DNA of 64,000 nt, taken from the NCBI GenBank assembly GCA_030616085.1, contig JAUWYA010000001.1:8692-72691 (forward strand), given 5' to 3'. Positions 556-54,510 of this stretch are shown one piece after another; the stretch's first letter is position 1, and every line of letters starts with the position of its first letter. This DNA is from Candidatus Nealsonbacteria bacterium (lineage in GTDB: Bacteria; Patescibacteriota; Minisyncoccia; Minisyncoccales; GWA2-38-27). A program made the position numbers and the translations under genes. The notes beneath the pieces were generated by a model. It was given only the letters and a program-made list of their open reading frames with translations, was not told where the DNA came from and searched no databases.

Positions 556-1329
556 ATGCCTTATTTTTCATTTGATAAAATCCAAATAGGACCGATTATT
601 CTTTATGTCTGGGGCGCATTCCTGGCTTTAGCTTTTTTATACGCTTTGTTTTTTGTTTCAAGAAAAGCAAAAAAACAAGGGATTGATACAGAAATAATTA
701 TTAGTTCTTTTTCCTGGTTAATAATCGGTACGATTATTGGAGCAAGATTAGGCTATATTATTCAGTTTTCAGATTATTATTTTTCAAAGCCAATTGAAAT
801 TCTAAAAATATGGCAAGGAGGAATGACTTTTCACGGCGGTCTTTTTGGTCTGCTGATTGCTGCTATTATTTATGCAAAGTTTGCCAAAGTTAGTTCAAGA
901 TTGTTTTTACAAATAGCAGATTTAGCTGTTTTAGCAGCTCCAATATCTATTGCTATTACAAGAGTCGGCTGTTCTTTAATTAATGATCATCAGGGAGCTG
1001 AAACATCTTTGCCTTGGGGAATTATGTGGCCAGATGGAACAATCAGGCATCCAGTAGCTGAATATCTGATTATCAGCGCATTAATTTTATATTTAATTCT
1101 AAGATTTTTAAAGCCAAAATTAACAAAACCGGGTCAATTATTTATTGTTTTTTTCTTCTTATATTCTCTTCTTCGCTTTTTCTTGGATTTTACCCGTTCT
1201 ACAGGCACTTCTTTGTCTGATCCCCGCTATTGGGGTTTATCCACAGCTCAGTGGTTATCTTTAGCTATAATTTTAGGTATAATAATAAAAAGTGTTTTTT
1301 TTAAAAAAAGCCCCGTAGAGAAAATTTGA
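556..1329 (+). CDS. lgt: Prolipoprotein diacylglyceryl transferase
   Basis: GARLGY, IWQGGMTFHGG, RVGCSLIND, RHP and RFFLDF motifs; its stop codon lies inside the element at 1311. Confidence 0.9.
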   Translation: MPYFSFDKIQIGPIILYVWGAFLALAFLYALFFVSRKAKKQGIDTEIIISSFSWLIIGTIIGARLGYIIQFSDYYFSKPIEILKIWQGGMTFHGGLFGLLIAAIIYAKFAKVSSRLFLQIADLAVLAAPISIAITRVGCSLINDHQGAETSLPWGIMWPDGTIRHPVAEYLIISALILYLILRFLKPKLTKPGQLFIVFFFLYSLLRFFLDFTRSTGTSLSDPRYWGLSTAQWLSLAIILGIIIKSVFFKKSPVEKI

Positions 1330-1386
1330 CTGCTTACAGCATTTAGGTTTTCTTTAAGAAAACCTTGTCAAATTTTCTCTACGGGG
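1311..1386. mobile_element. Family A miniature inverted-repeat element (CCCCGTAG subtype), 76 bp
   Basis: 20-bp TIR CCCCGTAGAGAAAATTTGAC/GTCAAATTTTCTCTACGGGG; AAAG on both flanks. Confidence 0.85.
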
Positions 1387-1421
1387 AAAGGTCGGAACTT
1401 AATTAAATTATTTATTATGAA

Positions 1422-1489
1422 CCCCGTTAGAAATTTATGTTAATTAGAATTTCTATTGGGGTAAAAATATATGAGAATTTCTAACGGGG
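1422..1489. mobile_element. Family A element, 68 bp, inserted in an ATGAA start codon
   Basis: CCCCGTTAGAAATT/AATTTCTAACGGGG; TGAA on both flanks; internal in-frame ATG at 1471. Confidence 0.9.
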
Positions 1490-1935
1490 TGAAAAAAACA
1501 AAAATTTTTATTCTAATTTCGCTTTTAGCGGTTTTGGTTTTGGTTGGGGCAATGTGTACAAAAAGTCCTGAAGCTTTTTATAAGAAAGTTTGTAAAACTG
1601 CTATAGATTTTTCAGAGGAGCTGGATGATGTTCTTGACCAAGAATTTGCTCTATTAGACGGAGAAGATGATTTAGACGATTGTATGGATGATATGATTGA
1701 ACAAGAAGAAGACTTGTATGATGAATGCATGGACGAGGAGGATGATGAAGACGTATGCGATGAAGTGATTGAAAATTACCGATTAACCATAGAAAACTTT
1801 CTTACTCGTCAAGGATGTTTGATTATCTACACCTCTTATTGTTCTATGCATCAAGCAACTGGAGAGTATGAGGACTTTAATGAATGTGTAGACGATGTAG
1901 AGGAGGTCTGTAAAACACTTCCAAGGTCATTTTAG
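1471..1935 (+). CDS. Acidic Cys-rich putative lipoprotein
   Basis: Hydrophobic signal ending VGAMC; N-terminal MRISNGV is element-derived. Confidence 0.7.
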   Translation: MRISNGVKKTKIFILISLLAVLVLVGAMCTKSPEAFYKKVCKTAIDFSEELDDVLDQEFALLDGEDDLDDCMDDMIEQEEDLYDECMDEEDDEDVCDEVIENYRLTIENFLTRQGCLIIYTSYCSMHQATGEYEDFNECVDDVEEVCKTLPRSF

Positions 1936-1943
1936 AAACTAAA

Positions 1944-1971
1944 CCCTTCATCTTTAGCTAAAAGTGAAGGG
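1944..1971. repeat. CCCTTCA...TGAAGGG mini inverted repeat with TAAA duplication
   Basis: Same termini and the same TAAA flanks as 8462-8495. Confidence 0.6.
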
Positions 1972-1979
1972 TAAAGATT

Positions 1980-4601: not shown

Positions 4602-4643
4602 ACTTAGCCGGGTTAAGTTTTGTACATAATCTATTTTAAAAAT

Positions 4644-6989: not shown

Positions 6990-7065
6990 CCCTGTAGAAG
7001 AAATTTGACTGCCTTTGAGATTTAGGTTTTCTTTCAGAAAATCTTGTCAAATTTTCTCTACGGGG
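6990..7065. mobile_element. Family A element (CCCCGTAG subtype), 76 bp
   Basis: Near-copy of 1311-1386; TAAA on both flanks. Confidence 0.85.
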
Positions 7066-7105
7066 TAAAGGTCGGGAATTTAGTAATTTTTGTTTAAGTT
7101 ATGAG

Positions 7106-7173
7106 CCCCGTTAGAAATCTTTGTTAATTAGAATTTCTATCGGGGTAAAAATCTATGGAAATTTCTAACGGGG
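7106..7173. mobile_element. Family A element, 68 bp, inserted in an ATGAG start codon
   Basis: Near-copy of 1422-1489; TGAG on both flanks; internal in-frame ATG at 7155. Confidence 0.9.
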
Positions 7174-9604: not shown

Positions 9605-10684
9605 ATGAAACAAAAAGGGTTTACCCCGTTAGAGATCAACGAGGCAAAAAATAAATATAAGGCAAGACAATCTCTAACGGGGTTTATTTCCATAAAGCTT
9701 CAGTTAATAATATTGGCTGTGATTTTACTTATAATGTCATTAGAAATAACCGGGCTTGTTTTAGACAGCAAAGGAAAATTATTTCCTTTATTTCGTAAAA
9801 TTTCTTTAGTATTCGCAGGATATAAAGATGCGGGAGGAATTTCAGATGAAGAAGGAAACGGCTTAACTTTCAAACAGGGGCCTGAATACTCAGATGAAGA
9901 AATGGAGAAGAGAATTAAAGAATTAGAGAAAAAAATCAAGGATCTTGAAGAAAATCAGCAGGTTCCCTTTCCTCCTGAAGAATATTTTCTTCCCCCTTTA
10001 ACTCAAGAGCAGATTAGCGCTGTAGTTGAACTTTGGTGTCCTGATGACGATTATAATTACACAGGATATATTAGCATTGGGTCAGGCAGCATTGTCAGTC
10101 CAGAAGGAATTATCATTACTAATAGGCACGTTATTTCAAATGAAGACTGGAGCGTTATTAAATCTACGCCAACTTGTTATGTTGCTGTTACAGATGATAT
10201 CGCCTGGCCGCCCACAGTGAAATATGCGGCTAATTTAATTGCTTACGCGCCTGTAACAGATGATTATTTTGATTTTGATATCGCTATTTTATATATCAAT
10301 GACGTTTGCCGCGAATGTGAGGATGCGCCAAGTTCTCTTCCTTCAAGTTTTTCTTATTTAGATCTTGGTTATTCTGATATTCTTGCGCCTGGAGATTATG
10401 TGGCAATTGCTGGTTATCCTGAAATAGGGGCAGGGACTTTTAATTTTACTGATGGAATAATAAGCGGAAGAGTAGGAGAGTTTGTTTTGAAAACAGATGC
10501 TAAGATTGATTCTGGGAATTCTGGAGGTTCTGCTTTGAATAGCAAGAATCAACTTATCGGAGCTCCTACCTGGACAATTTCAGGCCGGGCAGAAAGCATG
10601 GGCTATGTTATTGGTATTGACCAGGTTGTAGAATGGTATGAAACAAAAGTAGTGCCTTCTGATTCAGTAATAGTGCCTTACTAA
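9605..10684 (+). CDS. Membrane-anchored trypsin-like (S1C) serine protease
   Basis: GSGSIV, TNRHV (His), DIAIL (Asp), IDSGNSGG (Ser). Confidence 0.85.
   Translation: MKQKGFTPLEINEAKNKYKARQSLTGFISIKLQLIILAVILLIMSLEITGLVLDSKGKLFPLFRKISLVFAGYKDAGGISDEEGNGLTFKQGPEYSDEEMEKRIKELEKKIKDLEENQQVPFPPEEYFLPPLTQEQISAVVELWCPDDDYNYTGYISIGSGSIVSPEGIIITNRHVISNEDWSVIKSTPTCYVAVTDDIAWPPTVKYAANLIAYAPVTDDYFDFDIAILYINDVCRECEDAPSSLPSSFSYLDLGYSDILAPGDYVAIAGYPEIGAGTFNFTDGIISGRVGEFVLKTDAKIDSGNSGGSALNSKNQLIGAPTWTISGRAESMGYVIGIDQVVEWYETKVVPSDSVIVPY
9624..9682. mobile_element. Family A element, 59 bp, in frame in the protease gene
   Basis: CCCCGTTAGAGAT/ATCTCTAACGGGG; TTTA on both flanks; 59+4=63 bp. Confidence 0.9.
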
Positions 10685-23431: not shown

Positions 23432-23725
23432 ATGACTAATGATATTACAAAAATAAAGAAGAAAATAATCCCTATTCTAAAAAGCCACGATGTTAAAAAG
23501 GCGGCTGTTTTTGGCTCTTTTGTTAGAGGAGAGCAAAATAAAAAAAGTGATATTGATATTTTAATAGAGTTTAAGAACGATAACGATAAAAGCTTGCTTG
23601 ATTTAGTTGCTTTAAAACTTGATTTAGAAAAAGTCCTAAAAAGAAAAGTAGATGTAGTTGAATATCCTACGATAAAACCTCTTTTAAGAAAAAGTATTTT
23701 AAAAGAGCAAGCCTTAGTATTATGA
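23432..23725 (+). CDS. Minimal nucleotidyltransferase (MNT) antitoxin
   Basis: FGSFVRGE...SDIDIL, KVDVV. Confidence 0.9.
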   Translation: MTNDITKIKKKIIPILKSHDVKKAAVFGSFVRGEQNKKSDIDILIEFKNDNDKSLLDLVALKLDLEKVLKRKVDVVEYPTIKPLLRKSILKEQALVL

Positions 23726-24072
23726 AAAAAGATATAAGGGTTTTTATTCAAGATATATTAGAAAGCATTAAATTGATTGAAGACTATGCAAAAGGAGTAA
23801 GCGAAGAAGACTTTCTTGATAAAGATAACAATCTTCAGATGAAGGACGCTATTATTAGAAGATTAGAAATAATAGGTGAAGCAGTTAAGAATATCCCCGA
23901 TGATTTTAAAGGAAAATATCCTAATATTCCCTGGAAGCAAATTTCAGGAATGAGAGATATTCTTATTCATGAATATTTTGGAGTAAAATTAGAAAGGGTA
24001 TGGAAAACAGCAAAGGAAGATTTACCAGAACTAAGAAAAGCTATATCAAAAATATTAAAAGAAATTAAATAA
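23722..24072 (+). CDS. HEPN/DUF86 ribonuclease toxin
   Basis: LEIIGEA, MRDILIHEYFGV (Rx4HxY). Confidence 0.9.
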   Translation: MKKDIRVFIQDILESIKLIEDYAKGVSEEDFLDKDNNLQMKDAIIRRLEIIGEAVKNIPDDFKGKYPNIPWKQISGMRDILIHEYFGVKLERVWKTAKEDLPELRKAISKILKEIK

Positions 24073-24140: not shown

Positions 24141-24198
24141 CCCCGTTAGAGATAGGTTGCTATTGGCAATCGTCAGACGTCTTATCTCTAAACGGGGG
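24141..24198. mobile_element. Family A element, 58 bp, inserted in a TTGA(CT) -35-like box
   Basis: CCCCGTTAGAGATA/TATCTCTAAACGGGGG; TTGA on both flanks. Confidence 0.85.
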
Positions 24199-28195: not shown

Positions 28196-28289
28196 CCCCG
28201 TTAGAGATTATGGGGCAAGATAAGAAAATAATATTTATTATTAATTATGGTTCAAATAAAAAAACAAAGAGAAAGAATCTCTAACGGGG
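28196..28289. mobile_element. Family A element, 94 bp, inserted in an ATGA stop/start overlap
   Basis: CCCCGTTAGAGATT/AATCTCTAACGGGG; TGAA on both flanks; internal in-frame ATG at 28247. Confidence 0.9.
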
Positions 28290-31557: not shown

Positions 31558-31630
31558 CTTTATTTTAAAACTCTTGATATCCATAAATATTACAACTTTA
31601 TAGGTTTTTTCTATTTGACAAGCTTTATAA

Positions 31631-31683
31631 AGTTTTCCACAGGTTATGGTTTACAAAGACAGCCCTTTTCCTTTAAAATAAAA
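31631..31683 (+). repeat. ~50-bp promoter-containing direct repeat (copies at 31462, 31631, 32511)
   Basis: AGTTTTCCACAGGTTRTGGTTTACAAAGA...TTTTCCTTTAAAATAAA; TTTACA-18-TAAAAT. Confidence 0.75.
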
Positions 31684-31693
31684 GATGATAGTC

Positions 31694-31714
31694 TGGCGGT
31701 ATCGGATACCGCCA
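31694..31714. repeat. Family B palindrome, left flank of the RAYT gene
   Basis: TGGCGGTATCGGATACCGCCA. Confidence 0.9.
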
Positions 31715-31725
31715 ACTTCAATTTT

Positions 31726-32481
31726 ATGCGAAAACAACCATTTACAATAGATAGTTATGTTCATGTTTATAATAGAGGGAATCGAAAGACAGAGATAGTT
31801 CGAGCTGTCGCAGATAATTGGCGATTTTTACAAAGCCTTCGATTTTTTAATGATTCTCATTCTTCCACTCATATTTTACGTCAATTGGAGCTAGCTGGTC
31901 TGGCGGTATCCGATACCGCCAAGCCTACTATATCAAGAGAGTTTGAGTCTGTGTTTGAGATGGGATGGCCTCCGAATTGGCCAGAAAAAGATCCTCTAGT
32001 AAAAATTTTATCTTATTGTTTAATGCCAAACCATTTTCACCTGCTATTAAAAGAAATTAGAAAAGGTGGGATTAGTAAATTTATGCAAAAACTCGGCATA
32101 GGTTACACAAATTATTTCAATCTCAAATATCAAGAAGTAGGTAAAGTTTTTCAGGGAGGTTATAAAGCAAAATTAGTAAACGAAGAAATGTATTTGAAAT
32201 ACTTGTGTATTTATATTCAAGTAATAAATGTTTTAGAATTATTTCCGGGCGGTCTTAAAACGGCTCTTAAAAGCCCTAAAGATGCGATGAAATTTGTAGA
32301 CGATTATCCTTTTTCAAGTCATCTAGATTATGCTGGATTGCGAAAGTCTTTAATTATTGATAAAGACGTATTGGGTGAGTTTCTTCCCACATCAGAAGAT
32401 TACAGAAAATTTGCTCATGATTCAGTGATAGCAAAAGACTTTTATCAGATATTAGAAAAAGAAGACTTAAGGCTCGAATAA
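31726..32481 (+). CDS. REP-associated tyrosine transposase (RAYT; Y1 HUH family)
   Basis: HVYNRG, YCLMPNHFHLL (HUH), FQGGYK, YI..N, YPFSS; ATG 31726 preferred over TTG 31615. Confidence 0.88.
   Translation: MRKQPFTIDSYVHVYNRGNRKTEIVRAVADNWRFLQSLRFFNDSHSSTHILRQLELAGLAVSDTAKPTISREFESVFEMGWPPNWPEKDPLVKILSYCLMPNHFHLLLKEIRKGGISKFMQKLGIGYTNYFNLKYQEVGKVFQGGYKAKLVNEEMYLKYLCIYIQVINVLELFPGGLKTALKSPKDAMKFVDDYPFSSHLDYAGLRKSLIIDKDVLGEFLPTSEDYRKFAHDSVIAKDFYQILEKEDLRLE
31901..31921. repeat. Family B palindrome in frame inside the RAYT gene
   Basis: TGGCGGTATCCGATACCGCCA, read as LAVSDTA. Confidence 0.9.
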
Positions 32482-32486
32482 CTGTC

Positions 32487-32507
32487 TGGCGGTATCCGAT
32501 ACCGCCA
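32487..32507. repeat. Family B palindrome, right flank of the RAYT gene
   Basis: Extended stem AACTGTCTGGCGGTATC-C-GATACCGCCAGACAGTT. Confidence 0.9.
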
Positions 32508-32600
32508 GACAGTTTTCCACAGGTTGTGGTTTACAAAGAGGGTGTTTTTCCTTTAAAATAAAGAAACAAATTCAATAAGCCTGGCTTATCAAGCAAAACT

Positions 32601-33233: not shown

Positions 33234-37193
<3,960 letters not shown>

Positions 37194-37221: not shown

Positions 37222-37289
37222 CCCCGTTAGAAGCCGCCCTGCCGAAGGCACGGCTACGGCCGCCTCGGGGCGATCTGCTTCTAACGGGG
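37222..37289. mobile_element. Family A element, 68 bp, GC-rich interior, inserted in a TTGACA box
   Basis: CCCCGTTAGAAGC/GCTTCTAACGGGG; TTGA on both flanks; TTGACA-18-TAAAAT regenerated on the right. Confidence 0.9.
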
Positions 37290-37435: not shown

Positions 37436-37496
37436 CCCCGTAGAGAAAATTTGACTTGCTTCGCAAATGAATATTTGTCAAATTTCTTCTACGGGG
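37436..37496. mobile_element. Family A element (CCCCGTAG subtype), 61 bp
   Basis: CCCCGTAGAGAAAATTTGAC/GTCAAATTTCTTCTACGGGG; flanks TTGA and TTTGA. Confidence 0.8.
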
Positions 37497-38065: not shown

Positions 38066-38671
38066 ATGCCCCGTAGAGAAATTTCGAAAAACCCCTACAG
38101 GGTAATAATAAGAATTTCGGAGAAATTCTTAATTCGAAATTCTTCTACGGGGATGGATAAAAATAACCTTGTTGAACTTACAAATAAAGTTTATAAACTG
38201 ACTTTGCTTTTTCCTAAAAAAGAACCTTTGAGGTATAAAATAAGGGAAGTTGCTGATGATATTTTAGCTTGTAATTCAAGTTCAAAGAAATTGCAGGAGA
38301 ATTTAGGCGTTCTTAAAAAGTACTTTGAAGTAGCTAAATGGCAGAATTGGGTAAGTTATTTTGATATTTTGGAGATTGAAAAGAAATATGATAAAATTGA
38401 GAAAGGTTTATTAAAACATGCAGAACTTCAGAAAGGTCCGACCTTTGCCAAGATTGACGGGAGTCAGACCTTAGTTAAAACTTTAGATAATAGAAAAGAA
38501 AGGATTTTAGAGATTTTGAAAGAAAAAGAAAGAATTCAGGTTTGGGAGGTTAATGAGATTTTATCTGATGTATCTAAAAGAACCTTGCGAAGGGATTTTG
38601 AGCAATTATTAAAGCAGGGCTTGGTTGAAAGAATAGGAGAGAGAAACAATACTTTTTACCAATTAAAGTGA
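38066..38671 (+). CDS. Four-helix-bundle-like domain plus DeoR-type HTH protein
   Basis: LFPKKEPLRYKIRE; VSKRTLRRDF..L...GLVERIG; original start probably 38153. Confidence 0.7.
   Translation: MPRREISKNPYRVIIRISEKFLIRNSSTGMDKNNLVELTNKVYKLTLLFPKKEPLRYKIREVADDILACNSSSKKLQENLGVLKKYFEVAKWQNWVSYFDILEIEKKYDKIEKGLLKHAELQKGPTFAKIDGSQTLVKTLDNRKERILEILKEKERIQVWEVNEILSDVSKRTLRRDFEQLLKQGLVERIGERNNTFYQLK
38069..38152. mobile_element. Family A element (CCCCGTAG subtype), 84 bp, duplicating an ATG
   Basis: ATG-CCCCGTAGAG...TCTACGGGG-ATG; 84+3=87 bp in frame and stop-free. Confidence 0.8.
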
Positions 38672-40241: not shown

Positions 40242-40272
40242 CCCCAATTAGAAATTGAAAATTTCTAACGGG
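40242..40272. repeat. Degenerate family A element
   Basis: CCCCAATTAGAAATT...AATTTCTAACGGG; no clear TSD. Confidence 0.5.
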
Positions 40273-40364
40273 ACAAATAAAATTTTTATGCTCAAAAGAC
40301 CAAGACAGAAAAGTCGATTAATGATTAAGTAAATTATTAATTAACAAAAACACAGATTAAAAAA

Positions 40365-43922: not shown

Positions 43923-46274
43923 TTAAGGCAAAGTTTTAAGAAAGTCCTCTATATTTTGACGTGATTCGGGTGATAATTCCAAAACAATCATTGCTTGTTC
44001 CCTGGCTTTGTCATATTCTCCCAATTCTCTATAAATGTATGCTAAAGAAGCATGATATTGGAAATTCTCTGGGTTTACATGTATTATTAATCTTTCATAA
44101 ACATCAGCTAATCTTTGATAACATTCTATCTTGTCTTTAATATCTTCAATTGTTTCAAGCGCTTTTATATAAGCTTGCTGCAATTGAACAAGAGATTTGC
44201 CTGAGTTAATATTGTATTTCATTTTAATTGATATAGCTATATTTTCATCAGCTTGTTCAAGTTCGCCTAAATAAATATGAGCCAGAGCTTTTTTCCACCA
44301 ACAATGGGTTAGTTTCGGATTTAAATTAATACATTGTTCTGCTTTGAGCTTAACTCCTTGATAGTTTCCAGAAAGAAAGTCATTTTCTATCCAGCCAAGA
44401 AAGACTTCTTCGCGTTTAGGGTTTAATTCATAAGCTTTTTGATAGCAAGCATCAGCTTCTTTTATTAATTCTTCAACATTTTCTATTTTGAAAGCTTCTT
44501 TGTTTTCAATCAAAACATTTAAATAGTTTCCAAGAGAAATCCAGGTTCTGGTATGATAGGGTCTCATTTCTTTTACTTCTCTTAAGATTTCAACTGCTTT
44601 TGGCGCTAAGACATATTTTCTCTCTATATTTTCTCTAAGGCAATTTCTAATAACATTAATATACTGTAATCTTACATAAGCATCTATATTGCTGCGCAGA
44701 GACAAAACATTATCTATTCTTTCTAAAGCTTTTTCGCATTGGTTATTTTCTGAATAATGATTAGCCCAATTTATTTCCTTATTAACGCTTAATGGTTTTA
44801 AACCAGCAAACCAAATAAACAAAATTAATACGCAAAACAAACCAAGCATAATCCCATATTTCCATAATCTAGAGCTATCCGAGACCCGGTCTTTGCAAGT
44901 TAACAGAGACCCGGTCTCTGTAAGCTCATTATTTTTTCTAATAAGAAACAAAGAATAAGCAATTATTAAAAACAAAATAAGGTAAGTAGAAAAACTATCA
45001 AAGCTGAAGAAATTAGCTGTTAAATAACCAACAAAAACAGCTTGAATCCCATGATAGATTAATTTATCATCAGGATTTTTCTTCTTAAGTTTTTGCAATT
45101 GCCAAAATAATGTAGCAAAAAGCGAAAGATAGATTATTAAAGCGGGAATACCTGCTGTAACTGCAGTTTCAAGCATAAAATTATGAGCCCTGTCCCACCA
45201 AGTCCCGCTTTCTCTATAAATATTAGGCAAAGAGGGGTCATAATATTTATCAAAAGCAATTGATATGTTTTCCGGGCCATAGCCAAGAATAGGCCTTTCT
45301 TTCAGCGATTCCAAAAGTATTCGCCAGCCAGAAAATCTTGGGTCTTCTAAAACTAAATTAATTGAAAGACGAGAGGAAACCTGTTCGACTATTTTATTTT
45401 CTTGCAAATAATCAGGAAGTTTAGGGTTAGTATTTAAATAGTAAACTCCATAAGCGCTTATGATTAATAGAATTCCGAGTAAAATTTTCACCAATAGAAA
45501 CAAGGTTTTTCTTTTTGCATGAACCAAATTTACAGAGTACAAGAAAAAAAAGTAAAAAGAGCCAACTAATAAACCAAAATAAGCTGCTCTGGTTCCAGTG
45601 ATGAGAATAACATAAAGAAACATTAAAAAAGCAGAAAAATAAAAAATTCTTTTTAAAAGATTTTTTTCTTTAATTGCAAAAACTAAGACCAAAAAAACAA
45701 GAAGGATCAAATAAACGGCCAAAAGAATAGGCGAGCCCATTGTTGCCGGAGGTCTTCCTGTGTGGGGGATAAGATATTCTTTGAAAACCTCAAAATATTG
45801 AAAGATGGCCATAATTGAGGCTAAGACGCCGATAATCAAAGTAAAATCCCAGATTTTCTGCCAATCTTTCTTTTTAATAATCAAAAAAGCTAAAATAGCA
45901 AAAATTATATAAAGAGAAAAGTTTAAAAACCCGCCTGCCCTATAAGGTGAGCCCCAGAAACTAAAATAAGGATTCAAAGAAAAAATGGTTGCTAAGAGGA
46001 AAATTCCCCAAAGAGCGAGCAAAAGCCACCAGGTCATTCGACCTGGTGCCCCGTCGGATGACGGGGCAAAAACTGAAGAAATTTTAAAGTTTATCTGAAT
46101 TTTCCCAGAAATAATCTTCCAAATAAGAAAGAAAAGCAAAATAGAAACTATAATTCTAAAAACAAGAGCTTTTCCCCATGGAGCTGGATGAAACCAAGGA
46201 GGAGCAGCAAGCAAGGGCAAAGCTAAAATCACGAAAAAGGCAATTAGAAAAAAATTATAATTTTTATTATTCAT
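43923..46274 (-). CDS. O-antigen ligase (Wzy_C) family protein with TPR C-terminus
   Basis: RPPATMG.P, TGTRAA, ERPILGYGPEN, DRAHN; TPR helices. Confidence 0.85.
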   Translation of the reverse strand: MNNKNYNFFLIAFFVILALPLLAAPPWFHPAPWGKALVFRIIVSILLFFLIWKIISGKIQINFKISSVFAPSSDGAPGRMTWWLLLALWGIFLLATIFSLNPYFSFWGSPYRAGGFLNFSLYIIFAILAFLIIKKKDWQKIWDFTLIIGVLASIMAIFQYFEVFKEYLIPHTGRPPATMGSPILLAVYLILLVFLVLVFAIKEKNLLKRIFYFSAFLMFLYVILITGTRAAYFGLLVGSFYFFFLYSVNLVHAKRKTLFLLVKILLGILLIISAYGVYYLNTNPKLPDYLQENKIVEQVSSRLSINLVLEDPRFSGWRILLESLKERPILGYGPENISIAFDKYYDPSLPNIYRESGTWWDRAHNFMLETAVTAGIPALIIYLSLFATLFWQLQKLKKKNPDDKLIYHGIQAVFVGYLTANFFSFDSFSTYLILFLIIAYSLFLIRKNNELTETGSLLTCKDRVSDSSRLWKYGIMLGLFCVLILFIWFAGLKPLSVNKEINWANHYSENNQCEKALERIDNVLSLRSNIDAYVRLQYINVIRNCLRENIERKYVLAPKAVEILREVKEMRPYHTRTWISLGNYLNVLIENKEAFKIENVEELIKEADACYQKAYELNPKREEVFLGWIENDFLSGNYQGVKLKAEQCINLNPKLTHCWWKKALAHIYLGELEQADENIAISIKMKYNINSGKSLVQLQQAYIKALETIEDIKDKIECYQRLADVYERLIIHVNPENFQYHASLAYIYRELGEYDKAREQAMIVLELSPESRQNIEDFLKTLP
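44881..44921. repeat. Family C palindrome pair in frame in the CDS
   Basis: GAGACCCGGTCTT and ACAGAGACCCGGTCTCTGT. Confidence 0.7.
46027..46068. repeat. Two abutting GC-rich hairpins in frame in the CDS
   Basis: CACCAGGTC/GACCTGGTG and TGCCCCGTC/GACGGGGCA; absent from the paralogue. Confidence 0.65.
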
Positions 46275-46294
46275 AGATCCTGTCGGGCTAAGGG

Positions 46295-49036
46295 CTAAGG
46301 AAGAGATTCTAAGAATTCATCTATTTTTTCTCGCCCATGTGTTTTTGGTATTGAATATTGCCAAGCAATGAGGGCTTTTTGTTTTGCTTGGTCATATTCT
46401 TTTATTTCGTAATGAAGATGCGCTAAATTAAAATATAAAGTTCTTAAAAAATTATTTGCTTTTTCTCGAGATTTGGTGTCCGGTGTTGAATATTGCCAAG
46501 CAATTAGACCTTGTTGTTCTGCTTGTTTGAAGTTTTGTGTTATATTATAAGCTTGAGCCAAATAAAAATGATATTGGAAATGGTCATTGTCTAAATCTAA
46601 TATTGATTTAAAGAACTCTTCCGCATCTCCTAATAAGTCCGGAAACAATCTTACTATGTTTAAGGCTCGGTCTCTAGCTTTATCATATTCTCCTATTTCT
46701 TTATAAATGTATGATAAAGAAGCATGATATTGGAAACTTTCTGGGTCTGCCCACGCTATTAATCTGTCATAAACATCAGCTAATCTTTTGTAGATTTCTA
46801 TAAAAAGTTCTTCGTTTTTATCTTCATTTTCAATTGATTCAAATAATTTCATATAAGCTCTTTGTAATTTAAAAAGATTTTTGTCTGAGTTAATATTGTG
46901 CCCCATTTTAATTGATATAGCCATATTTTCATCAGCTTGTTCAAGTTCATTCAAATAAATATGAGCCAGAGCTTTTTTCCACCAGCAGTGTGCTAATTTC
47001 GGATTTAAATTAATGCATTGTTCTGCTTTTTCTTTTGCTGTTTGGTATTTTCCAGAAATAAAGTCACTTTCTATCCAACCAAGAAAGACTTCTTCACGTT
47101 TAGGGCTTAATTCGTGAGCTCTTTGATAGCAAGCATCAGCTTCTTTTTCTAATTCTTCAACACTCTCTATTTTAAGGATGTCTTTGTTTCCAATCAAAAT
47201 ATTTAAATAGCTTCCAAGAGAAATCCATGTTCTGGTATAATTAGGCCTTAGGTCTTTTAATTCTCTTAAGATTTCAACTGCTTTTGGGGCTAAGACGTAT
47301 TTTCTTTCCATATTTTGTTCTAGGCAATCTTTAATAATATCAAGATATTGAAGCCGGACATAAGTGTCTACAATGCTATGCGAAGAAAGAATACTGTCTA
47401 TTTTTTCTACTGCTTTTTCACACTGTTTTCTTTCTGAATAATAAATAGCCCAATTTAATTCTTTATTAATCTCCAAGGGTTTTAAAGCTCCAAGCCAAAT
47501 AAACAAAACTAATACACAAAATAGTCCAAATATTAATCCAGATTTCCACAGAGGACTATCAGAGACTGGGTCTCTGTTGATTAACAGAGACCGGGTCTCT
47601 GTAAGCTCATTATTTTTTTGAATAAGAAATAAAGAATAGCCAACTAAAAGAAAGAAAATTAGATAAGTAGAAAAACTATCAAAACTGAAAAAATTAGCTG
47701 TTAAATAACCAATAAAAACAGCTTGAATTCCATGGCAGATTAAAGCATCATTAGGATTTTTTGTTTTTAGTTTTTGTAATTGCCAGAATAATGCGGCAAA
47801 AAGAGAAAGATAGATTATTAAAGCGGGAATGCCTGCTTCAATTGCAATATCAAGTATAAAATTATGGGCTCTATCCCACCAAATGCGGGATAATCCTGGA
47901 AGACGAGGGTCATAATGTTTATCAAAAGCTACTGAAAAATTTTCTGGACCCCAACCAAGAATAGGTCTTTCTTTTATTGCCTCAATACTAACTTTCCAGG
48001 CAGAGAAACGCGCTTCTTCAAAGATTAATTCAAACGAAAGCCGAGGGGCAATTGTTTTTAATGTTCTGTTATTTTCAACAAATTCAGGAAGCTGGTCTTG
48101 TGTATTCACAAAGTAAATACTGCCAACAATTAAAAATAAGGCAATGACAGTTATAATTTTTAGTAAAAGTATTTTTTTTGAGCGGTTTTTTACCCCGTTA
48201 GAGATTTGTTTATTTTGTGGTTCTTCTTTTTTTTGGTAACCTCTAACGGGGTACAAGAGAAAGAAATAAAGAAAACCAATTATTAAGCCGAGATAAACAG
48301 CTCTGGCTTTTATGATTAGAATAACAAAAATAAACAATGCGATTACTGAAAAATAAAAGAATTTTTTTAGATATTTTTTTTCTTTTACCCCGTTAGAGAT
48401 TTGTTTATCTTGTGCTTTCTCTTTATTCTCAGAATCTCTAACGGGGTTTAAACCAAAAGATAAAGCTAAAAATACTAAGAACAAAAGATACATAGCTAAG
48501 AATATTGAATTTCCAAAACTTGCTGCAGGTCTTCCTGTAGAGGAGATAAGATATTCTTTGAAAACCTCAAAATATTGAAAGATGGCCATAATTGAGGCTA
48601 AAGCACCGATAACTAAAGTAAAGCCCCAGATTTTTTGCCAATCTTTTTTTCTGATAATCAAAAAAGCCAAAATAGCAAAAATTATATAAAGAGAAAAGTT
48701 TAAAAACCCGCCTGCTCTATATGGAGATTCCCAAAAACTGTAATAAGGGTCTTTAGAAAAAATAGTTGCTAAGAGGAAAATTCCCCAGAGGGTTATCAAT
48801 AACCAGAAAGGCCAGAAAACCTTATTTTTTCTATCTAATAAATCCTTAAAATTTATCTTGATTTTTTTAGAAATAATCTTCCAAATAAGAAAGAAAAGCA
48901 AACTAGAAACTATAATTCTAAAAACAAGAGCTTTTCCCCAGGCAGCTGGATGAAACATAGGAGGAACAGCAAGCAAGGGCAAAGCTAAAATCACAAAAAA
49001 AGCAATTAGATAGATTTTATAGGACTTGTTATCCAT
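46295..49036 (-). CDS. O-antigen ligase family protein with TPRs (tandem paralogue)
   Basis: Highly similar to 43923-46274, with two ...ISNGV insertions and extra TPRs. Confidence 0.85.
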   Translation of the reverse strand: MDNKSYKIYLIAFFVILALPLLAVPPMFHPAAWGKALVFRIIVSSLLFFLIWKIISKKIKINFKDLLDRKNKVFWPFWLLITLWGIFLLATIFSKDPYYSFWESPYRAGGFLNFSLYIIFAILAFLIIRKKDWQKIWGFTLVIGALASIMAIFQYFEVFKEYLISSTGRPAASFGNSIFLAMYLLFLVFLALSFGLNPVRDSENKEKAQDKQISNGVKEKKYLKKFFYFSVIALFIFVILIIKARAVYLGLIIGFLYFFLLYPVRGYQKKEEPQNKQISNGVKNRSKKILLLKIITVIALFLIVGSIYFVNTQDQLPEFVENNRTLKTIAPRLSFELIFEEARFSAWKVSIEAIKERPILGWGPENFSVAFDKHYDPRLPGLSRIWWDRAHNFILDIAIEAGIPALIIYLSLFAALFWQLQKLKTKNPNDALICHGIQAVFIGYLTANFFSFDSFSTYLIFFLLVGYSLFLIQKNNELTETRSLLINRDPVSDSPLWKSGLIFGLFCVLVLFIWLGALKPLEINKELNWAIYYSERKQCEKAVEKIDSILSSHSIVDTYVRLQYLDIIKDCLEQNMERKYVLAPKAVEILRELKDLRPNYTRTWISLGSYLNILIGNKDILKIESVEELEKEADACYQRAHELSPKREEVFLGWIESDFISGKYQTAKEKAEQCINLNPKLAHCWWKKALAHIYLNELEQADENMAISIKMGHNINSDKNLFKLQRAYMKLFESIENEDKNEELFIEIYKRLADVYDRLIAWADPESFQYHASLSYIYKEIGEYDKARDRALNIVRLFPDLLGDAEEFFKSILDLDNDHFQYHFYLAQAYNITQNFKQAEQQGLIAWQYSTPDTKSREKANNFLRTLYFNLAHLHYEIKEYDQAKQKALIAWQYSIPKTHGREKIDEFLESLP
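47560..47602. repeat. Family C palindrome pair in frame in the CDS
   Basis: CAGAGACTGGGTCTCTG and ACAGAGACCGGGTCTCTGT. Confidence 0.7.
48193..48251. mobile_element. Family A element, 59 bp, in frame
   Basis: CCCCGTTAGAG/CTCTAACGGGG; flanks TTTA and TACA (imperfect). Confidence 0.85.
48388..48446. mobile_element. Family A element, 59 bp, in frame
   Basis: CCCCGTTAGAGATT/AATCTCTAACGGGG; TTTA on both flanks; absent from the paralogue. Confidence 0.92.
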
Positions 49037-49825: not shown

Positions 49826-49850
49826 CAATGTATTCAAATAAAGATAATAT
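49822..49850 (+). promoter_or_regulatory. Sigma70-type promoter of the riboswitch operon
   Basis: TTGACA-17-TAATAT. Confidence 0.65.
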
Positions 49851-49870
49851 ATATTAAAGCATTTTAAAAA

Positions 49871-49935
49871 TGGATGGGAAAGTTCGGTGAAAATCCGAGA
49901 CTGTGCCGCAACTGTTAAAGTCAGAATACCATCCG
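49871..49935 (+). ncRNA. Compact cobalamin riboswitch
   Basis: GGGAA-GTTCGGTGAAAATCCGA-CTGTGCCGCAACTGT-AAGTCAGA core, closed by GGATGG/CCATCC; DUF4430-like genes downstream. Confidence 0.85.
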
Positions 49936-50034
49936 CACAATATTAACTTCTTTTCTTCGAGCTAAAGAGAAAGATTAACCCGCCAAAATTTAGGCGGGAT
50001 AATCTCTTTCACTCGAAAAGAGATTTTTTAATTC

Positions 50035-51858
50035 ATGAAAATAAAAAAGAAAATTTTAATTGTTTATTTAGCCATACTTTTAGCTGTCTTAATTGGATTG
50101 GGTAATTTTTTTGAAGTTTGGTCAGAAAGCCAATCAGAAATTGATAAAGCTATAAACTATCTTAAAGCTCAGCCTCAAACCGCCTGGGCCACTATGGCTT
50201 TGGCCGGAGCTGGAGAAACCGAGATTGATTTAAATCATCTAAAATCTGTTCCTTCTGGCCAAGAGTCAGCTACTACCTATGCAAAGTATATTTTAGCTTT
50301 AGTAGCAGTTGGCAAGAATCCCTCTAATTTTGGAGATGAAAATTATGTAGAGAAACTAAAAAGTTTTTATCAAGATGGGCAATTCGGTGAGAAAAATTTT
50401 ATTAATGATGATATTTGGGCAATTTTAGCCTTGGCTTCAATTGGTCAGAAAAATTTAGCAATAGTTCAGGATGCCAAAGATTATATTTTGAGCTATCAAA
50501 ATTCAGACGGAGGATGGAGTTATGATATTTCTTTTTCCTCTTCTGATACCAATGATACTGCTGCTGCCATTATGGCCCTGCTTGAAGCAGGAGTTTCTTC
50601 TTCTTCATCAGCTATCCAGAATTCTATTAGTTTTTTGAAATCTCAACAAAATGATGATGGTGGATTTTCTTATCTTGCAGATTCGCTTTCCGATTCTTGC
50701 TCTGATGCCTGGGTAATTTCAGCTATTTATAAATTGGGACAGGATCCTTTCAGCTCAAATTGGACAAAAAATGGGAAAAACGCTTTAGACCATCTCAAAT
50801 CTTTACAAGATGAAGATGGCGGTTTCTGGTGGCAATCTGAAGGGGATAACAAATTTTGCAGTTCTTATGCTTTGGTTTCCTTATTAATGAAGTATTATCC
50901 GATTGAAACAATTTATAATAAGCATCACTTAAGAATTGAAGATCAGGATAGCACTATTTGTGATACTGAGATTAATGGCGGCACTGCTATGGATTTGATA
51001 ATTAGAGGTTCGGAGATATGTAATTACGATTACTTAATTAGTGAGTATCCTGGAATAGGTCTTTATTTGGCAGAAATAAATGGTCAGGCCAACTGGATGT
51101 ATATGGTAAACAATATTTCTCCTATGATAGGAGCAGATAGCTATTACTTAGAAACTGGAGATGAGGTTTTATGGTTTTCTGGAGCATGGTTAGAGAAAGG
51201 TTGGTTTCCAACTAAGCTTGAATTATTTAAAACCGAAAATTTAGCCACTTTTCAAGTAAAATATTACGATTCCGCAGCTAATAATTGGCAAAATTTAGAA
51301 ATACAAGGAATAAAAGTAAAGATTGGCGAGTCAGAATTTATTACTAATGATACAGGACAAATTGAAGTTTCTTTAACAGGTTTAGAAGCTGGTTTTTATC
51401 AGGTATTTGTTGAAACCCAGATTATTGATGAAAAAGGTTATATTAGAAGTGAAAAAGTAAATTTAACAACTGGAGAAGTTCCTAAAGAACATGGAGTGGG
51501 ATTAAAAGTAGAGATTGAAAAAATAGAAGTTCCTCCTGGAGGAGAACAAGAAGCAATTAGTTTTTCAGTAAGTTCAGATAGTTTGGATTTCGGAAAATTA
51601 AAACCAGGAGAAAGCTCTACTCAAAATTTGACCATTGACAATGGAGAGAGTAGAATTTATTTAGAAGCGGAAGTAAATGGAGCTAGTGTTTTTCAAGACA
51701 ATTTAGAAATAGATGAAAAATTTTGGCAATTTTTCTCAACTGAAATTGAGAAAAACCAAGAGAAGTCTTTCCCAGTCAAATTAACTATCCCATTTAATTA
51801 TGATGGAGATTTTGGCCAACAAGAGGGGGAATTAACTTTTTGGGCAATTAAAAAATGA
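50035..51858 (+). CDS. Surface protein with prenyltransferase/squalene-oxidase-like repeats plus DUF4430-like domain (putative B12-binding)
   Basis: YQNSDGGW, QQNDDGGF, LQDEDGGF repeats; WMYMVNN.SP.IGADSY.L..GDEVLW. Confidence 0.75.
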   Translation: MKIKKKILIVYLAILLAVLIGLGNFFEVWSESQSEIDKAINYLKAQPQTAWATMALAGAGETEIDLNHLKSVPSGQESATTYAKYILALVAVGKNPSNFGDENYVEKLKSFYQDGQFGEKNFINDDIWAILALASIGQKNLAIVQDAKDYILSYQNSDGGWSYDISFSSSDTNDTAAAIMALLEAGVSSSSSAIQNSISFLKSQQNDDGGFSYLADSLSDSCSDAWVISAIYKLGQDPFSSNWTKNGKNALDHLKSLQDEDGGFWWQSEGDNKFCSSYALVSLLMKYYPIETIYNKHHLRIEDQDSTICDTEINGGTAMDLIIRGSEICNYDYLISEYPGIGLYLAEINGQANWMYMVNNISPMIGADSYYLETGDEVLWFSGAWLEKGWFPTKLELFKTENLATFQVKYYDSAANNWQNLEIQGIKVKIGESEFITNDTGQIEVSLTGLEAGFYQVFVETQIIDEKGYIRSEKVNLTTGEVPKEHGVGLKVEIEKIEVPPGGEQEAISFSVSSDSLDFGKLKPGESSTQNLTIDNGESRIYLEAEVNGASVFQDNLEIDEKFWQFFSTEIEKNQEKSFPVKLTIPFNYDGDFGQQEGELTFWAIKK

Positions 51859-51859
51859 G

Positions 51860-51940
51860 CCCCGTTAGAAATCCAAAAAAGATTCTAAAGGGGAAATATT
51901 ATGCTTCAAAAACTCAGAAATTCTAAAATTTCTAACGGGG
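51860..51940. mobile_element. Family A element, 81 bp, in an ATGA stop/start overlap
   Basis: CCCCGTTAGAAAT/ATTTCTAACGGGG; TGAG on both flanks; internal GGGG plus in-frame ATG at 51901. Confidence 0.9.
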
Positions 51941-52485
51941 TGAGAAAAATTCTATTAATCTTAATAATAATTTCTTTTTTAGCTGCTAATTCTGTTCAAG
52001 CGGTGGCAGTTAAAGTTAAGCCATCTGAAATAAAAATTGAAGCCAATGCAGGAGTTTTGATTGAACATGAAATAATAATAGAAAATCCGGGTGAAAACGT
52101 AGCTTTGTTTGAAGTTTATTTAGACAATTTTTCTGATTGGATCAAAGCAAAACCAGAAAGTTTTGTTTTAGAAAGTGGAGAAATGCAAAAAGTAATTTTA
52201 GAAATTAAAAATGAAGAGATAGGGGTCTTTTCTACTATGATTTCAGTAGTAGCTAAATCTTTATCTGAAAGGAAGTTTAAAGCCAATTCCGGAGTGAAAA
52301 TCCCCTTGGAAATTAGAGTTATTCAAAGAGAGGAATCAAATTTTTTAGCTGCTGTTTCCCAAAACATTAAAAGATTTTTGGATTCAAGGAGCTTAATTTT
52401 TGTTTTTAGCATAATTTTAGTTTTGGTTTTAGCCATAATTTGCATAAAGAGGCGTAAGAGCATATTAAAAGATGAACCCCGTTAG
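51901..52485 (+). CDS. Secreted Ig-like protein with C-terminal TM
   Basis: Signal peptide, V.P..I...IENPG pattern, C-terminal anchor; start and stop are both supplied by family A elements. Confidence 0.65.
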   Translation: MLQKLRNSKISNGVRKILLILIIISFLAANSVQAVAVKVKPSEIKIEANAGVLIEHEIIIENPGENVALFEVYLDNFSDWIKAKPESFVLESGEMQKVILEIKNEEIGVFSTMISVVAKSLSERKFKANSGVKIPLEIRVIQREESNFLAAVSQNIKRFLDSRSLIFVFSIILVLVLAIICIKRRKSILKDEPR

Positions 52486-52754
52486 AGATTAGCGATATGT
52501 TTTATACTTACGTAATACAAAGCAAAAAAGACAGAAAATGGTACACTGGCTATACTGAAGATTTACGGAAACGCTTTAATCAACATAACTCTAATGAGGT
52601 TTATTCAACAAAAAATAGAGGACCGTTTGAGCTAATTTATTATGAAGTATGTTTAAATTCACAAGATGCAAGGTCAAGAGAAAAATATTTAAAAACTGGG
52701 ATGGGAAAGCGCTATCTTAAAAATAGATTAAAGCGTTTCCTATCTCTAACGGGG
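52477..52754 (+). mobile_element. Family A element, 278 bp, carrying only a GIY-YIG nuclease gene
   Basis: 13-bp perfect TIR CCCCGTTAGAGAT/ATCTCTAACGGGG; TGAA on both flanks (52473-76, 52755-58). Confidence 0.9.
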
Positions 52755-52757
52755 TGA
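52497..52757 (+). CDS. Stand-alone GIY-YIG nuclease, 86 aa
   Basis: FYTYVI...WYTGYT.DL.KR..QHN...TK.RGPFELIYYE...A..RE.YLK. Confidence 0.92.
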   Translation: MFYTYVIQSKKDRKWYTGYTEDLRKRFNQHNSNEVYSTKNRGPFELIYYEVCLNSQDARSREKYLKTGMGKRYLKNRLKRFLSLTG

Positions 52758-53248
52758 AAAAAAATATTAAAATAATTATATGGATTGGAATATTTCTAAT
52801 TTTAGTTGCTGGAATAATTTTTACCCCGTTTAGAGATTATATGACAGGGCTAAAAAACAGAGCAGACAAATCTCTAACGGGGTTTATCTTTCAAGACAAA
52901 GTTGATCTTGAAGAGGAATCTAATAATCAAGTATTAGAAGAAAGCACAATAAGCGTAATTTTAATTATTGATTATGGCGATGGAATCTCTCAAGACTTTG
53001 ATATTGAGTTTGTTGAAGGAATGACCGCCTTTGATTTGTTAAATGATAGGGCAGAGGAATTAAGCTTGGAAACAAAAGCATATGACATTGGAATTCTTAT
53101 AGAGGCAGTTGGGGATAAAAAGAATGGACAAGATGGAAAATATTGGCTATATTATATAAATGGAGAGATGCCTATGGTTTCAGTTGATAATCTGAAAATT
53201 AACCCTGACGATAAAGTAGAATTTAAATTTGAGAAATCACCATTTTAA
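52754..53248 (+). CDS. DUF4430-domain membrane-anchored protein
   Basis: TAFDLL, GILIEAVG...NGQDGKYWLYYING, DKVEFKF; GTG start created by element end plus TSD. Confidence 0.8.
   Translation: MKKNIKIIIWIGIFLILVAGIIFTPFRDYMTGLKNRADKSLTGFIFQDKVDLEEESNNQVLEESTISVILIIDYGDGISQDFDIEFVEGMTAFDLLNDRAEELSLETKAYDIGILIEAVGDKKNGQDGKYWLYYINGEMPMVSVDNLKINPDDKVEFKFEKSPF
52824..52882. mobile_element. Family A element, 59 bp, in frame
   Basis: CCCCGTTTAGAGATT/AATCTCTAACGGGG; TTTA on both flanks. Confidence 0.9.
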
Positions 53249-53280
53249 TGTATAATAAATGTATAATAAGTGTATAATAT

Positions 53281-53826
53281 ATGTCTAAAAAATTAGAATT
53301 TGCTATTGCTATAATTTTTATTTTGGTAGGAGTTAGTTTGCGGCTTCTTCCTCATGCTCCTAATTTTGCGCCAATTGCTGCAATAGCTCTATTCGGAGGA
53401 GTTTATCTTTCAAGAAAAACAGCTCTTATTCTGCCAATAGCAGTAATGATGATTTCAGATATTTTTATTGGCAGTTATGGAATTAAATTAATGGTTTTTG
53501 TTTATGCCAGTTTTTTAATTTGCGTGCTTTTGGGTTTTTGGTTGAAAAAACATAAGAAGTGGCAAATAATCTTAGGAAGTTCTATTTTATCTGGTATTAT
53601 CTTTTTCATTTTGACTAATTTTGCTGTTTGGATTTTTACTCCCTGGTATGCTAAAACTCTTTCCGGCATAGTCCAATGTTATGCAATGGCTCTACCATTT
53701 TTCAGAAACACTTTATTGGGAAATATATTTTATGTAGGCGCGTTTTTTGGAAGTTACGAGATAATAAGAGTTTGGATTAAAAAGAAGTTTGAAAACGAAG
53801 AAAAAGCCCTTGTTCACCCCGTTTAG
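53281..53826 (+). CDS. DUF6580-like membrane transporter (ECF S-component-like, putative cobalamin uptake)
   Basis: RLLPHAPNFAPIAAIALFGG, TNFAVW, CYAMALPFFRNTL; in the riboswitch operon. Confidence 0.75.
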   Translation: MSKKLEFAIAIIFILVGVSLRLLPHAPNFAPIAAIALFGGVYLSRKTALILPIAVMMISDIFIGSYGIKLMVFVYASFLICVLLGFWLKKHKKWQIILGSSILSGIIFFILTNFAVWIFTPWYAKTLSGIVQCYAMALPFFRNTLLGNIFYVGAFFGSYEIIRVWIKKKFENEEKALVHPV

Positions 53827-53970
53827 AGAGTGTTCGACACCGAGTGTCGAACATTTCTAATGTCTAACGAAATATGAAGGTTCGACCTTCATATTTTTTT
53901 CAATCACGGGAAAAGGTCGCTCCTTGAGAAGGAGTGGAGCGAAGCGAAACGACGGGAAAGGTGCGACCTT
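53817..53970. repeat. Cluster of nested palindromes starting with a family A left end
   Basis: CCCCGTTTAGAGA; TGTTCGACAC/GTGTCGAACA; AAATATGAAGGT/ACCTTCATATTT; AAGGTCGC/GCGACCTT. Confidence 0.7.
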
Positions 53971-54025
53971 GAGGAGTGATTTGATTTTAGGTTAAAAAAG
54001 AGTTAACCTGAAAGTAGATAAATCT

Positions 54026-54403
54026 ATGAAAAAGAAATTTATAACCTTAAAAAAATATCAAAAAATTATAGAACCGGGGGAGGAATTAAGTTATGGTAAC
54101 AAGTCTCCATTTGATTCAATAAATCTTCCATCTTGCAAGGGTGTTTTTATTGCTTGGCATGGGCCACAGGTCTTAGTTAATGGTAATACTGGTACAGCTT
54201 ATGTTTGTAGATCAGATGTCAAAGATCCAAAACCTTTAAACTTTGATGTTTATTCTATCCGCCAGACTAAAGATCCGGGAATTATTGAAATCACAACTTC
54301 TCTCAAGCAAAAATATCATTGGGCAGATGATGTCCCAGATATCATGAAAGGATCTGTTCCAGAATGGGTAAAAGAGAAAATCGCGAAAATTAAAAAGATA
54401 TAG
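54026..54403 (+). CDS. Hypothetical protein
   Basis: 125-aa ORF with no recognisable motif. Confidence 0.55.
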   Translation: MKKKFITLKKYQKIIEPGEELSYGNKSPFDSINLPSCKGVFIAWHGPQVLVNGNTGTAYVCRSDVKDPKPLNFDVYSIRQTKDPGIIEITTSLKQKYHWADDVPDIMKGSVPEWVKEKIAKIKKI

Positions 54404-54481
54404 ATTGCGTTAAGCTTAGCTTAACGCAAAACTAGGCTCGGCCTCTCTAATTTAAGTTTGATACTCATTGATACCTATTGA

Positions 54482-54510
54482 CCCCGTTTAGAGATAAATC
54501 TCTAACGGGG
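54482..54510. mobile_element. Minimal family A element, 29 bp, in a TTGACA box
   Basis: CCCCGTTTAGAGATAAATCTCTAACGGGG; TTGA on both flanks; TTGACA-17-TAATAT regenerated on the right. Confidence 0.9.

Follow-up and report, generated by a model that had tools for sequence, protein, structure and literature searches.

Short inverted-repeat insertions with 4-bp target duplications, and a candidate GIY-YIG mobiliser, in a Candidatus Nealsonbacteria genome

The window analysed here is a stretch of 64,000 nucleotides from a Candidatus Nealsonbacteria bacterium (assembly GCA_030616085.1, contig JAUWYA010000001.1, positions 8,692 to 72,691), which lies on contig C1 of the source genome, G000 (740 kb, 35 contigs, 98% complete). 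Short elements with inverted terminal arms are scattered through it, and one of them, at 52477, encloses the gene of a small GIY-YIG nuclease, P0001. An earlier reading of the letters (the original prediction) had placed copies at 18 starts, all of which were found, and was also right about the length range of 29-278 bp and about 13 perfect 4-bp flanking repeats among the 17 two-ended copies (TGAA x3, TGAG x2, TTTA x3, TTGA x3, TAAA and AAAG). We suggest, with a probability of roughly 0.65, that the paired arms are recognised as a single-strand stem by the nuclease, which would move itself as well as the copies without a gene, here called miniatures, with the help of host repair. The copies in the window are as follows.

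52477..52754, + strand: full-length element of GTTAG type (278 bp) with inverted arms of 13 bp and a duplicated TGAA; candidate autonomous form
52497..52757, + strand: GIY-YIG nuclease gene P0001, 86 aa
1311..1386: GTAG-type miniature, 76 bp, AAAG duplicated; contains the stop of the lgt gene (556-1329)
1422..1489: GTTAG miniature, 68 bp, TGAA duplicated within an ATGAA start; supplies a new in-frame ATG for the open reading frame (ORF) 1471-1935
6990..7065: 76-bp miniature of GTAG type with CCCTGTAG as its left arm; TAAA duplicated; sister to 1311
7106..7173: GTTAG miniature, 68 bp, TGAG duplicated within an ATGAG start; sister to 1422
9624..9682: member of the 59-bp class with a duplicated TTTA; lies in frame (21 codons) close to where a trypsin-domain gene starts
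24141..24198: miniature with a hairpin interior; TTGA duplicated if the right end has five G's; then TTGAC
28196..28289: 95-bp class, TGAA duplicated at a stop/start overlap (ATGA)
37222..37289: GC-hairpin class, TTGA duplicated, then TTGACA
37436..37496: GTAG-type miniature, 61 bp; flanks TTGA and T+TTGA, one base extra
38069..38152: GTAG-type miniature, 84 bp; flanks AATG and ATG, so that the repeat is 3 bp (ATG) and coincides with a start codon; open in frame
40242..40273: degenerate minimal copy, repeat gone
48193..48251: 59-bp class, in frame within the O-antigen-ligase/TPR gene 46295-49036 (- strand); repeat matches at 2 of 4 positions
48388..48446: 59-bp class, TTTA duplicated, in frame
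51860..51940: 80-bp class, with TGAG duplicated at a stop/start; related strains have the exact site empty
52824..52882: 59-bp class, TTTA duplicated, in frame within a DUF4430 gene; exact empty site in related strains
53817..53871: disrupted copy with left arm, unrelated palindrome and decayed right arm
54482..54510: minimal arms-only copy, 29 bp, TTGA duplicated, then TTGACA

With a strict end pattern, 86 arm pairs were found in G000, 64 of which are flanked by a perfect 4-bp repeat; a relaxed pattern gave 94 paired elements and 34 lone arms. The junctions of these 94 pairs comprise 70 perfect 4-bp repeats, 10 with one extra base, three with 3 bp, six matching at three of four positions and five without a repeat. 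When flanks were permuted among copies (10,000 permutations), perfect repeats averaged 7.1 and reached 18 at most, and the reversed G000 sequence, used as a control, contained no arm pairs. The duplicated target reads T-N-N-A in 60 of the 70 perfect copies, with no base preference beyond the 4-mer, and self-complementary targets are rarer than expected (4/60 vs 21.5%, p 0.002). The terminal inverted repeats are 13-14 bp long in miniatures and nuclease copies alike, where MITEs (miniature transposable elements with inverted repeats) and insertion sequences (IS) are expected to have at least 10 bp. Family DNA totals 7,087 bp, about 1% of G000. The predicted rate of about one element per 3.5 kb describes the window (about 0.28/kb), which is about twice as dense as the genome average of only 0.13/kb. 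The two predicted end subtypes, GTTAG and GTAG, hold up, each having its own nuclease-bearing long form. Two wider pairings in G000, of 643 and 1873 bp, both lack a repeat, and the 643-bp pairing is accounted for by a closer degenerate arm.

Empty sites were sought in contigs of related strains (sets X2 and X3 come from one study and are about 90-95% alike), using a likeness threshold of 88% and sides of 40-68 bases. At 51860 such contigs skip 85 bp (81+4), and at 52824 they skip 63 bp (59+4), in both cases with four bases that fit either side. On contig C26 of G000, which carries a second intact nuclease copy, one X2 contig skips 282 bp at that copy (278+4), with three bases fitting either side, and one X1 contig skips 68 bp at another site (64+4). 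Orthologues of the gene at the C26 nuclease site were examined in 30 of 31 cases; arms lie upstream only in G000 and G002 and are absent in 28 of the 30. The upstream region can be aligned in G016 and G001, and both have a single TGAA, the empty target. In G001, exactly over this target, a 40-bp unit is present three times in succession (L584, on G001:C2, upstream of the gene at 33830), possibly a repair footprint or an assembly artefact. The reverse case was also observed, with a single TAAA in G000 where the G008 site is filled. Among 38 miniatures of relatives, 25 have no two-sided orthologue in G000 and 11 of the remaining 13 sites are empty there; three of these 11 project to exactly -4 bp, and only one aligned to the junction on both sides. 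Within the window, the tandem paralogue at 43923-46274 has a 21-residue gap at the position of element 48388. The two O-antigen-ligase/TPR paralogues (43923-49036) share 79% DNA identity over part of their length, and the element-free one may keep a decayed remnant at the second site. The window's own nuclease site (52477) has no exact empty counterpart in the related-strain contigs, which skip 323 bp rather than 282, and a DNA search of two same-genus genomes found no orthologue of the 46-55 kb region. Collectively, these results demonstrate that the short inverted-repeat elements are real insertions with a 4-bp target duplication. The claim of true insertion events is thereby upheld on both of the counts on which it could have failed: flank identity is 70/94 against a null mean of 7.1, and the 4-mer is present once at empty sites.

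The original prediction listed the gene in the 278-bp element as one kind of interior among others and missed its likely role as mobiliser. P0001 is a single-domain protein of 86 aa that matches PF01541 (E 2.7e-16). Its last codons pass through the right arm and its stop, TGA, sits in the duplicated target. Residues Y5, Y16, R26, H30 and E62 are invariant among 29 aligned proteins, so that both tyrosines and the glutamate of the GIY-YIG fold are present, and the dN/dS of the gene is 0.09 (16 pairs). Besides the second intact copy on C26, G000 has three further pieces at contig ends and, on C33, a 317-bp GTAG-type element with its own nuclease, 56% identical to P0001. All four above-cut-off PF01541 matches in G000 fall within arms. 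A gene-first sample, the best 80 of 436 homologous loci, gave both arms in 75 cases, 74 of them distinct and 73 of these 74 with an intact gene. These 74 elements are 274-287 bp long, with one of 314 bp, and only four pairs have flank sequence in common. By record title, the loci belong to Patescibacteria, Omnitrophota, Planctomycetota, Nitrospirota, Desulfobacteraceae, Clostridia and others. Most of these elements have on their right side a TGAA or TAAA that carries a stop. An arm-first scan of metagenomes covered at least 123 loci and yielded, from 151 seeds, 96 paired and 69 distinct elements. Among the matches listed, 35 of the 69 have a perfect repeat, five of the six elements of 201-350 bp encode a GIY-YIG protein, and both pairings above 350 bp are without a repeat. 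Viral contigs gave 114 arm matches, of which 80 were examined and one was a paired element; we take the viral matches to be mostly chance, and carriage by phages is unsupported.

We then considered small GIY-YIG genes more widely. Fetching with four arm-bearing queries, and dropping duplicate loci, ORFs outside 70-110 aa and cases near contig ends, left 85 genes. Inverted arms enclose 43 of the 85, compared to one of 85 in a reversed control. The arm types are GTTAG, GTAG, CCCCCAC, CCCCGCCC, AGCACAT and CAACTTCC, several of them with 4-7-bp repeats. Ten of the 11 nucleases with GTAG arms form one clade (SH-aLRT 97) that spans many host families, and arm labels change 20 times on the protein tree, compared to 40.2 times when shuffled. 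Other arm families surround small GIY-YIG genes at Candidate Phyla Radiation loci L111/L121, L114, L269-L282, L294 and L247-L259, some with repeats of 5-7 bp (7 bp at L274). Two of these loci, L111 and L121, are separate sites in a single genome; their proteins are identical and each site has a TGAA repeat, suggesting that the element moved recently.

The two arms of a copy also change together. At arm positions 1 and 11-13, which were free of the search pattern, 97-100% of 64 copies are paired, where 51-88% would be expected. Position 13, which is silent in the codon of the right arm, has changed about 23 times on the tree; among the 37 nearest pairs, 11 changed in both arms, four in the left only and none in the right only. 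Hairpin folds were obtained for nine copies of the window (z -2.9 to -10.8). Such covariation could also arise by arm-to-arm copying within a palindrome, which would count against recognition of a stem. GTAG arms, however, retain a fixed internal mismatch that copying should erase.

The interiors of the miniatures, classed by length and GC content with simple ORF calls, are less haphazard than predicted. They had been described as unrelated, with only the ends conserved. Instead, the interiors of the 25 copies that are 59 bp long are 53% identical, compared to 39% in shuffles (max 40%), and the GC-hairpin interior of 37222 recurs in distant families. The related suggestion that the ends carry arbitrary cargo is likewise not supported, the sole gene found inside being the GIY-YIG nuclease; it does hold that length (29-317 bp) and sequence of the interior are loosely constrained. 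The copies occupy particular niches. Of the 58-59-bp copies, 22/28 lie inside ORFs, where 59+4 = 63 bp preserves the frame, and such in-gene copies add NPVR...SNGV or TPLE...LTG peptides to proteins. Gene starts hold 8/12 of the 80-bp class and 4/5 of the 95-bp class. TG-type targets are preceded by A in 19/23 cases, so that the element lands in an ATG and its right end restores GTG or ATG; TTGA targets read TTGACA in 7/11. We infer that these niches reflect the survival of harmless insertions. Carry-over of the 4-mer from the donor becomes less likely because many different repeats occur within the oriented 59-bp class and because two sister 62-bp copies carry TTTA and CCCG, respectively. Intron-like splicing was set aside, the genome being bacterial and the in-gene copies keeping frame. 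Arm-like remnants occur inside 5/76 short interiors (null mean 0.5, max 3). At L015, L018 and G000 C33:9236, a TTTA insertion lies just before an FTLIE/FTIIE motif, with the arm supplying the preceding glycine, and two nuclease copies read through into genes with this motif, which we take to be prepilin-like.

A mechanism can be proposed from these patterns. In single-stranded DNA, on the lagging strand or incoming, the 13-14-bp arms would pair, with an interior of whatever length looped out. The nuclease would bind this stem by sequence and nick beside it and at a TNNA target, and host polymerase and ligase would finish the insertion. The nuclease is placed in this role because a conserved gene fills the long form, because arm sequence follows nuclease clade and because both arms change together. 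GIY-YIG enzymes are known as hydrolases, and for that reason completion is assigned to the host, which would also explain the frequent junctions that are one base off. Copies would persist where they are harmless: as 63 bp in frame, at ATGA starts rebuilt to GTG or ATG, or just ahead of TTGACA boxes.

Several observations weigh against this role of the nuclease. To our knowledge, strand transfer by any GIY-YIG enzyme has not been described. Co-occurrence as such is in its favour: in a sample of the phylum, miniatures occur in 5/6 genomes that have a nuclease homologue of at least 65% identity, a threshold picked after the hits were seen, compared to 18/244 others; at the E cut-off of the search the figures are 6/11 and 17/239. 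The Fisher p of 2e-5 overstates this association since kin genomes are not independent. The richest other miniature-bearing genomes, G076 (37), G129 (25) and G048 (16), have no close nuclease match, and neither do the relatives G017 (16), G008 (8) and G020 (8). Among 40 near relatives, miniatures occur in 14, and this nuclease clade was found only in G002, which is free of them; both G002 and G219 have the nuclease and no miniature by the patterns used. Passing elements and unassembled repeats might account for the miniature-rich genomes without a nuclease. A perfect repeat flanks only 24 of the 74 nuclease copies (null mean 7, max 15), and their recurring TTCA/TAAA and TTTA/TGAA flank pairs are not explained by a mobilising nuclease. 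We rejected the miniatures as deletion derivatives of the nuclease-bearing form, as only 1/76 short interiors beat shuffles. Arm labels on the nuclease tree were assigned by eye and post hoc, and the tree is a quick one with 44/81 branches open. Finally, one site is common to two genera, with arms (26/26) and repeats (8/8) identical while the interior (23/33) and flanks (43/56 and 38/56) have diverged, and the sister units 1311-1489 and 6990-7173 carry different yet perfect repeats. From both cases it follows that copies need not be recent and that ends may be maintained in place.

The best surviving alternative, which we nonetheless consider unlikely, is that these are ordinary MITEs which an unseen DDE transposase mobilises in trans, the nuclease being cargo that was captured. 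IS1380-, IS701- and IS5-like elements make 4-bp repeats, and terminal inverted repeats with a 4-bp repeat, exact at 70/94 junctions here, are standard IS anatomy. The many miniature-rich genomes without the nuclease would be expected under this explanation, as would the 55 of 151 arm-first seeds that are unpaired among the matches listed, 24 of them with at least 1 kb of room. G000, however, has no match to PF13701, PF01609 or PF13546, the three families searched in this 35-contig assembly, which stand for IS1380-, IS4/IS5- and IS701-type transposases. No repeat-flanked long member appeared among the 69 arm-first elements listed, a sample rather than a census, or among the G000 pairs. It is also hard to explain why several arm types, each in step with its own nuclease clade, should have captured the same small nuclease again and again, and 13/94 junctions are one base off.

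A role of the nuclease in homing or maintenance, with empty alleles or the hairpin as its substrate and the element copied or kept by host recombination, seems slightly less probable again. GIY-YIG homing endonucleases are established, and the cross-genus site with its intact ends, the sister units with their different repeats and the threefold 40-bp unit over the empty G001 target would all suit such an enzyme. P0001 also has a weak match to TIGR01453, although at 22.5 bits this falls well below the cut-off of 56, and its 86 aa include no extra DNA-binding domain. Homing returns to one site, yet the 74 nuclease copies lie in almost wholly unrelated flanks; the target is only 4 bp, and the near-sister 62-bp copies differ in it (TTTA vs CCCG).

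Very improbable is the spread of REPIN-like hairpins by a Y1/HUH transposase (RAYT or IS200/IS605): PF01797 matches three genes of G000, the elements form hairpins and one arm type contains GTAG, but family arms enclose none of these three Y1 genes, two adjoin other palindromes, and empty sites show a 4-bp gain, when we know of no target duplication by HUH elements. One Y1 match belongs to an ORF at 31615-32481 of the window that is followed by a perfect GC-rich palindrome (~32480-32512), a separate RAYT-like repeat family.

Further repeats and genes were observed alongside the family. Two other palindromes lie at 53829-53895 of the window, one nested in the disrupted copy 53817 and one of GAAGGTTCGACCTTC type, which also adjoins the Y1 gene on contig C15. 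Another palindrome, at ~54400-54445, has many near-identical copies in the same-genus genomes G001 and G002 and one on C7 of G000. Three asymmetric hairpins of 32-33 bp combine a GTAGG left arm with a CCTTTGGGG right arm (G000 C10:38744, C20:7611-7642 and C33:8652), and G000 contains further CC...GG pairs with 4-bp repeats (CCCTTCACC twice and CCCCGTTAA) as well as five AGCACATAA arms. The region 50035-53826 encodes a protein with a prenyltransferase/squalene-cyclase fold and DUF4430, a second DUF4430 protein and a DUF6580 protein, and holds four elements in 3.8 kb. A HepT-like ribonuclease gene (23722-24072) lies directly upstream of element 24141.

Transposons are classed by chemistry as DDE, HUH, tyrosine or serine recombinase, IS110 and Cas1. 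Inverted ends and a target duplication with a GIY-YIG protein as the sole gene fit none of these. We lean slightly towards regarding the family as a transposable element of a new class, with a size (~260-330 bp) that would place it among the smallest that are autonomous, and defined by a single-domain GIY-YIG superfamily, clade-specific arm sequence, a long-range single-strand stem with a free loop that would be recognised, and a 4-bp duplication. If so, any short sequence enclosed by a 13-bp arm pair could be moved with the help of an 86-residue protein. Should the nuclease be the mobiliser, a transposon class would be added and many standalone GIY-YIG genes would gain a role; Atlas clusters of such genes are auto-named 'putative Excinuclease ABC subunit C'. 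The several nuclease/arm pairs would then also provide small hairpin nucleases with sequence specificity. In these small genomes the family adds peptides to proteins and rewrites start codons. No description of it was found in the literature at the level of titles and abstract openings; subscription journals, ISfinder and the supplementary repeat lists of the Ssn study were outside this scope, and the last may bear on novelty.

Among solved structures, the closest relatives of P0001 are UPF0213 or Slx1-like proteins (PDB 1ZG2, 1YWL and 7WME), with 1ZG2 matching at E 7.6e-8 over residues 3-64 only. We know of no description of such standalone GIY-YIG proteins inside inverted repeats. Rickettsia palindromic and Correia elements are palindromic inserts that are likewise tolerated in frame or reshape starts and promoters. 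The present family differs from them in its ends and target, and in having a candidate mobiliser between the same ends. With prokaryotic MITEs and their IS parents, as described in the main text of a survey, it shares inverted ends (10-15 bp there), a short target duplication (2-10 bp there) and many non-coding copies (PMC11602168). In contrast to MITEs, the long form holds a GIY-YIG gene instead of a transposase gene, the arms covary per copy and the miniatures are not internal deletions. The main text of that survey contains none of the terms 'GIY-YIG', 'nuclease' and 'Patescibacteria' (PMC11602168). REP/REPIN-RAYT and IS200/IS605 systems resemble the family in their paired single-strand hairpin repeats, which flank a small cognate nuclease and co-vary with it (described in part in the main text of PMC11893778). 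They differ in that the enzyme here is GIY-YIG and not HUH, and that a 4-bp target is duplicated.

The closest known system is Ssn/NTS (Chenal et al. 2025), whose enzyme (cd10448) probably belongs to a different clade and is described in the main text of its report as follows (PMC11893778). A lone GIY-YIG protein of ~90 aa binds a single-stranded DNA hairpin by sequence and cuts beside it (PMC11893778). As in the present family, the enzyme is a single domain of ~90 aa, the flanking repeat also occurs in many gene-less copies, and repeat sequence varies with enzyme clade (PMC11893778). Each NTS is a self-contained hairpin of ~30 nt, rarely (2%) in genes (PMC11893778). Here, two half-arms pair across a gene or spacer, a 4-bp target is duplicated and 22/28 of the 58-59-bp copies lie in genes. 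The SRM motif has no match in G000, in the 94 elements or in the 74 nuclease loci, and P0001 is only 26-30% identical to two NTS-adjacent stand-ins for SsnA (E 6e-4 and 0.1), which have a C-terminal tail that P0001 lacks. The threshold for the cd10448 clade is a blastp E below 1e-10 at 75% cover to N. meningitidis SsnA, and the stand-in values speak against P0001 being a member. The family is therefore not classed as Ssn, on account of the absent motif and this low identity. The terms 'target site', 'duplication' and 'Patescibacteria' are absent from the main text on Ssn (PMC11893778), whose authors compare NTS-ssnA-NTS to an insertion sequence. If the nuclease does mobilise the elements described here, their idea that such genes began as insertion sequences (PMC11893778) becomes testable, and Ssn/NTS itself may work like the present family.

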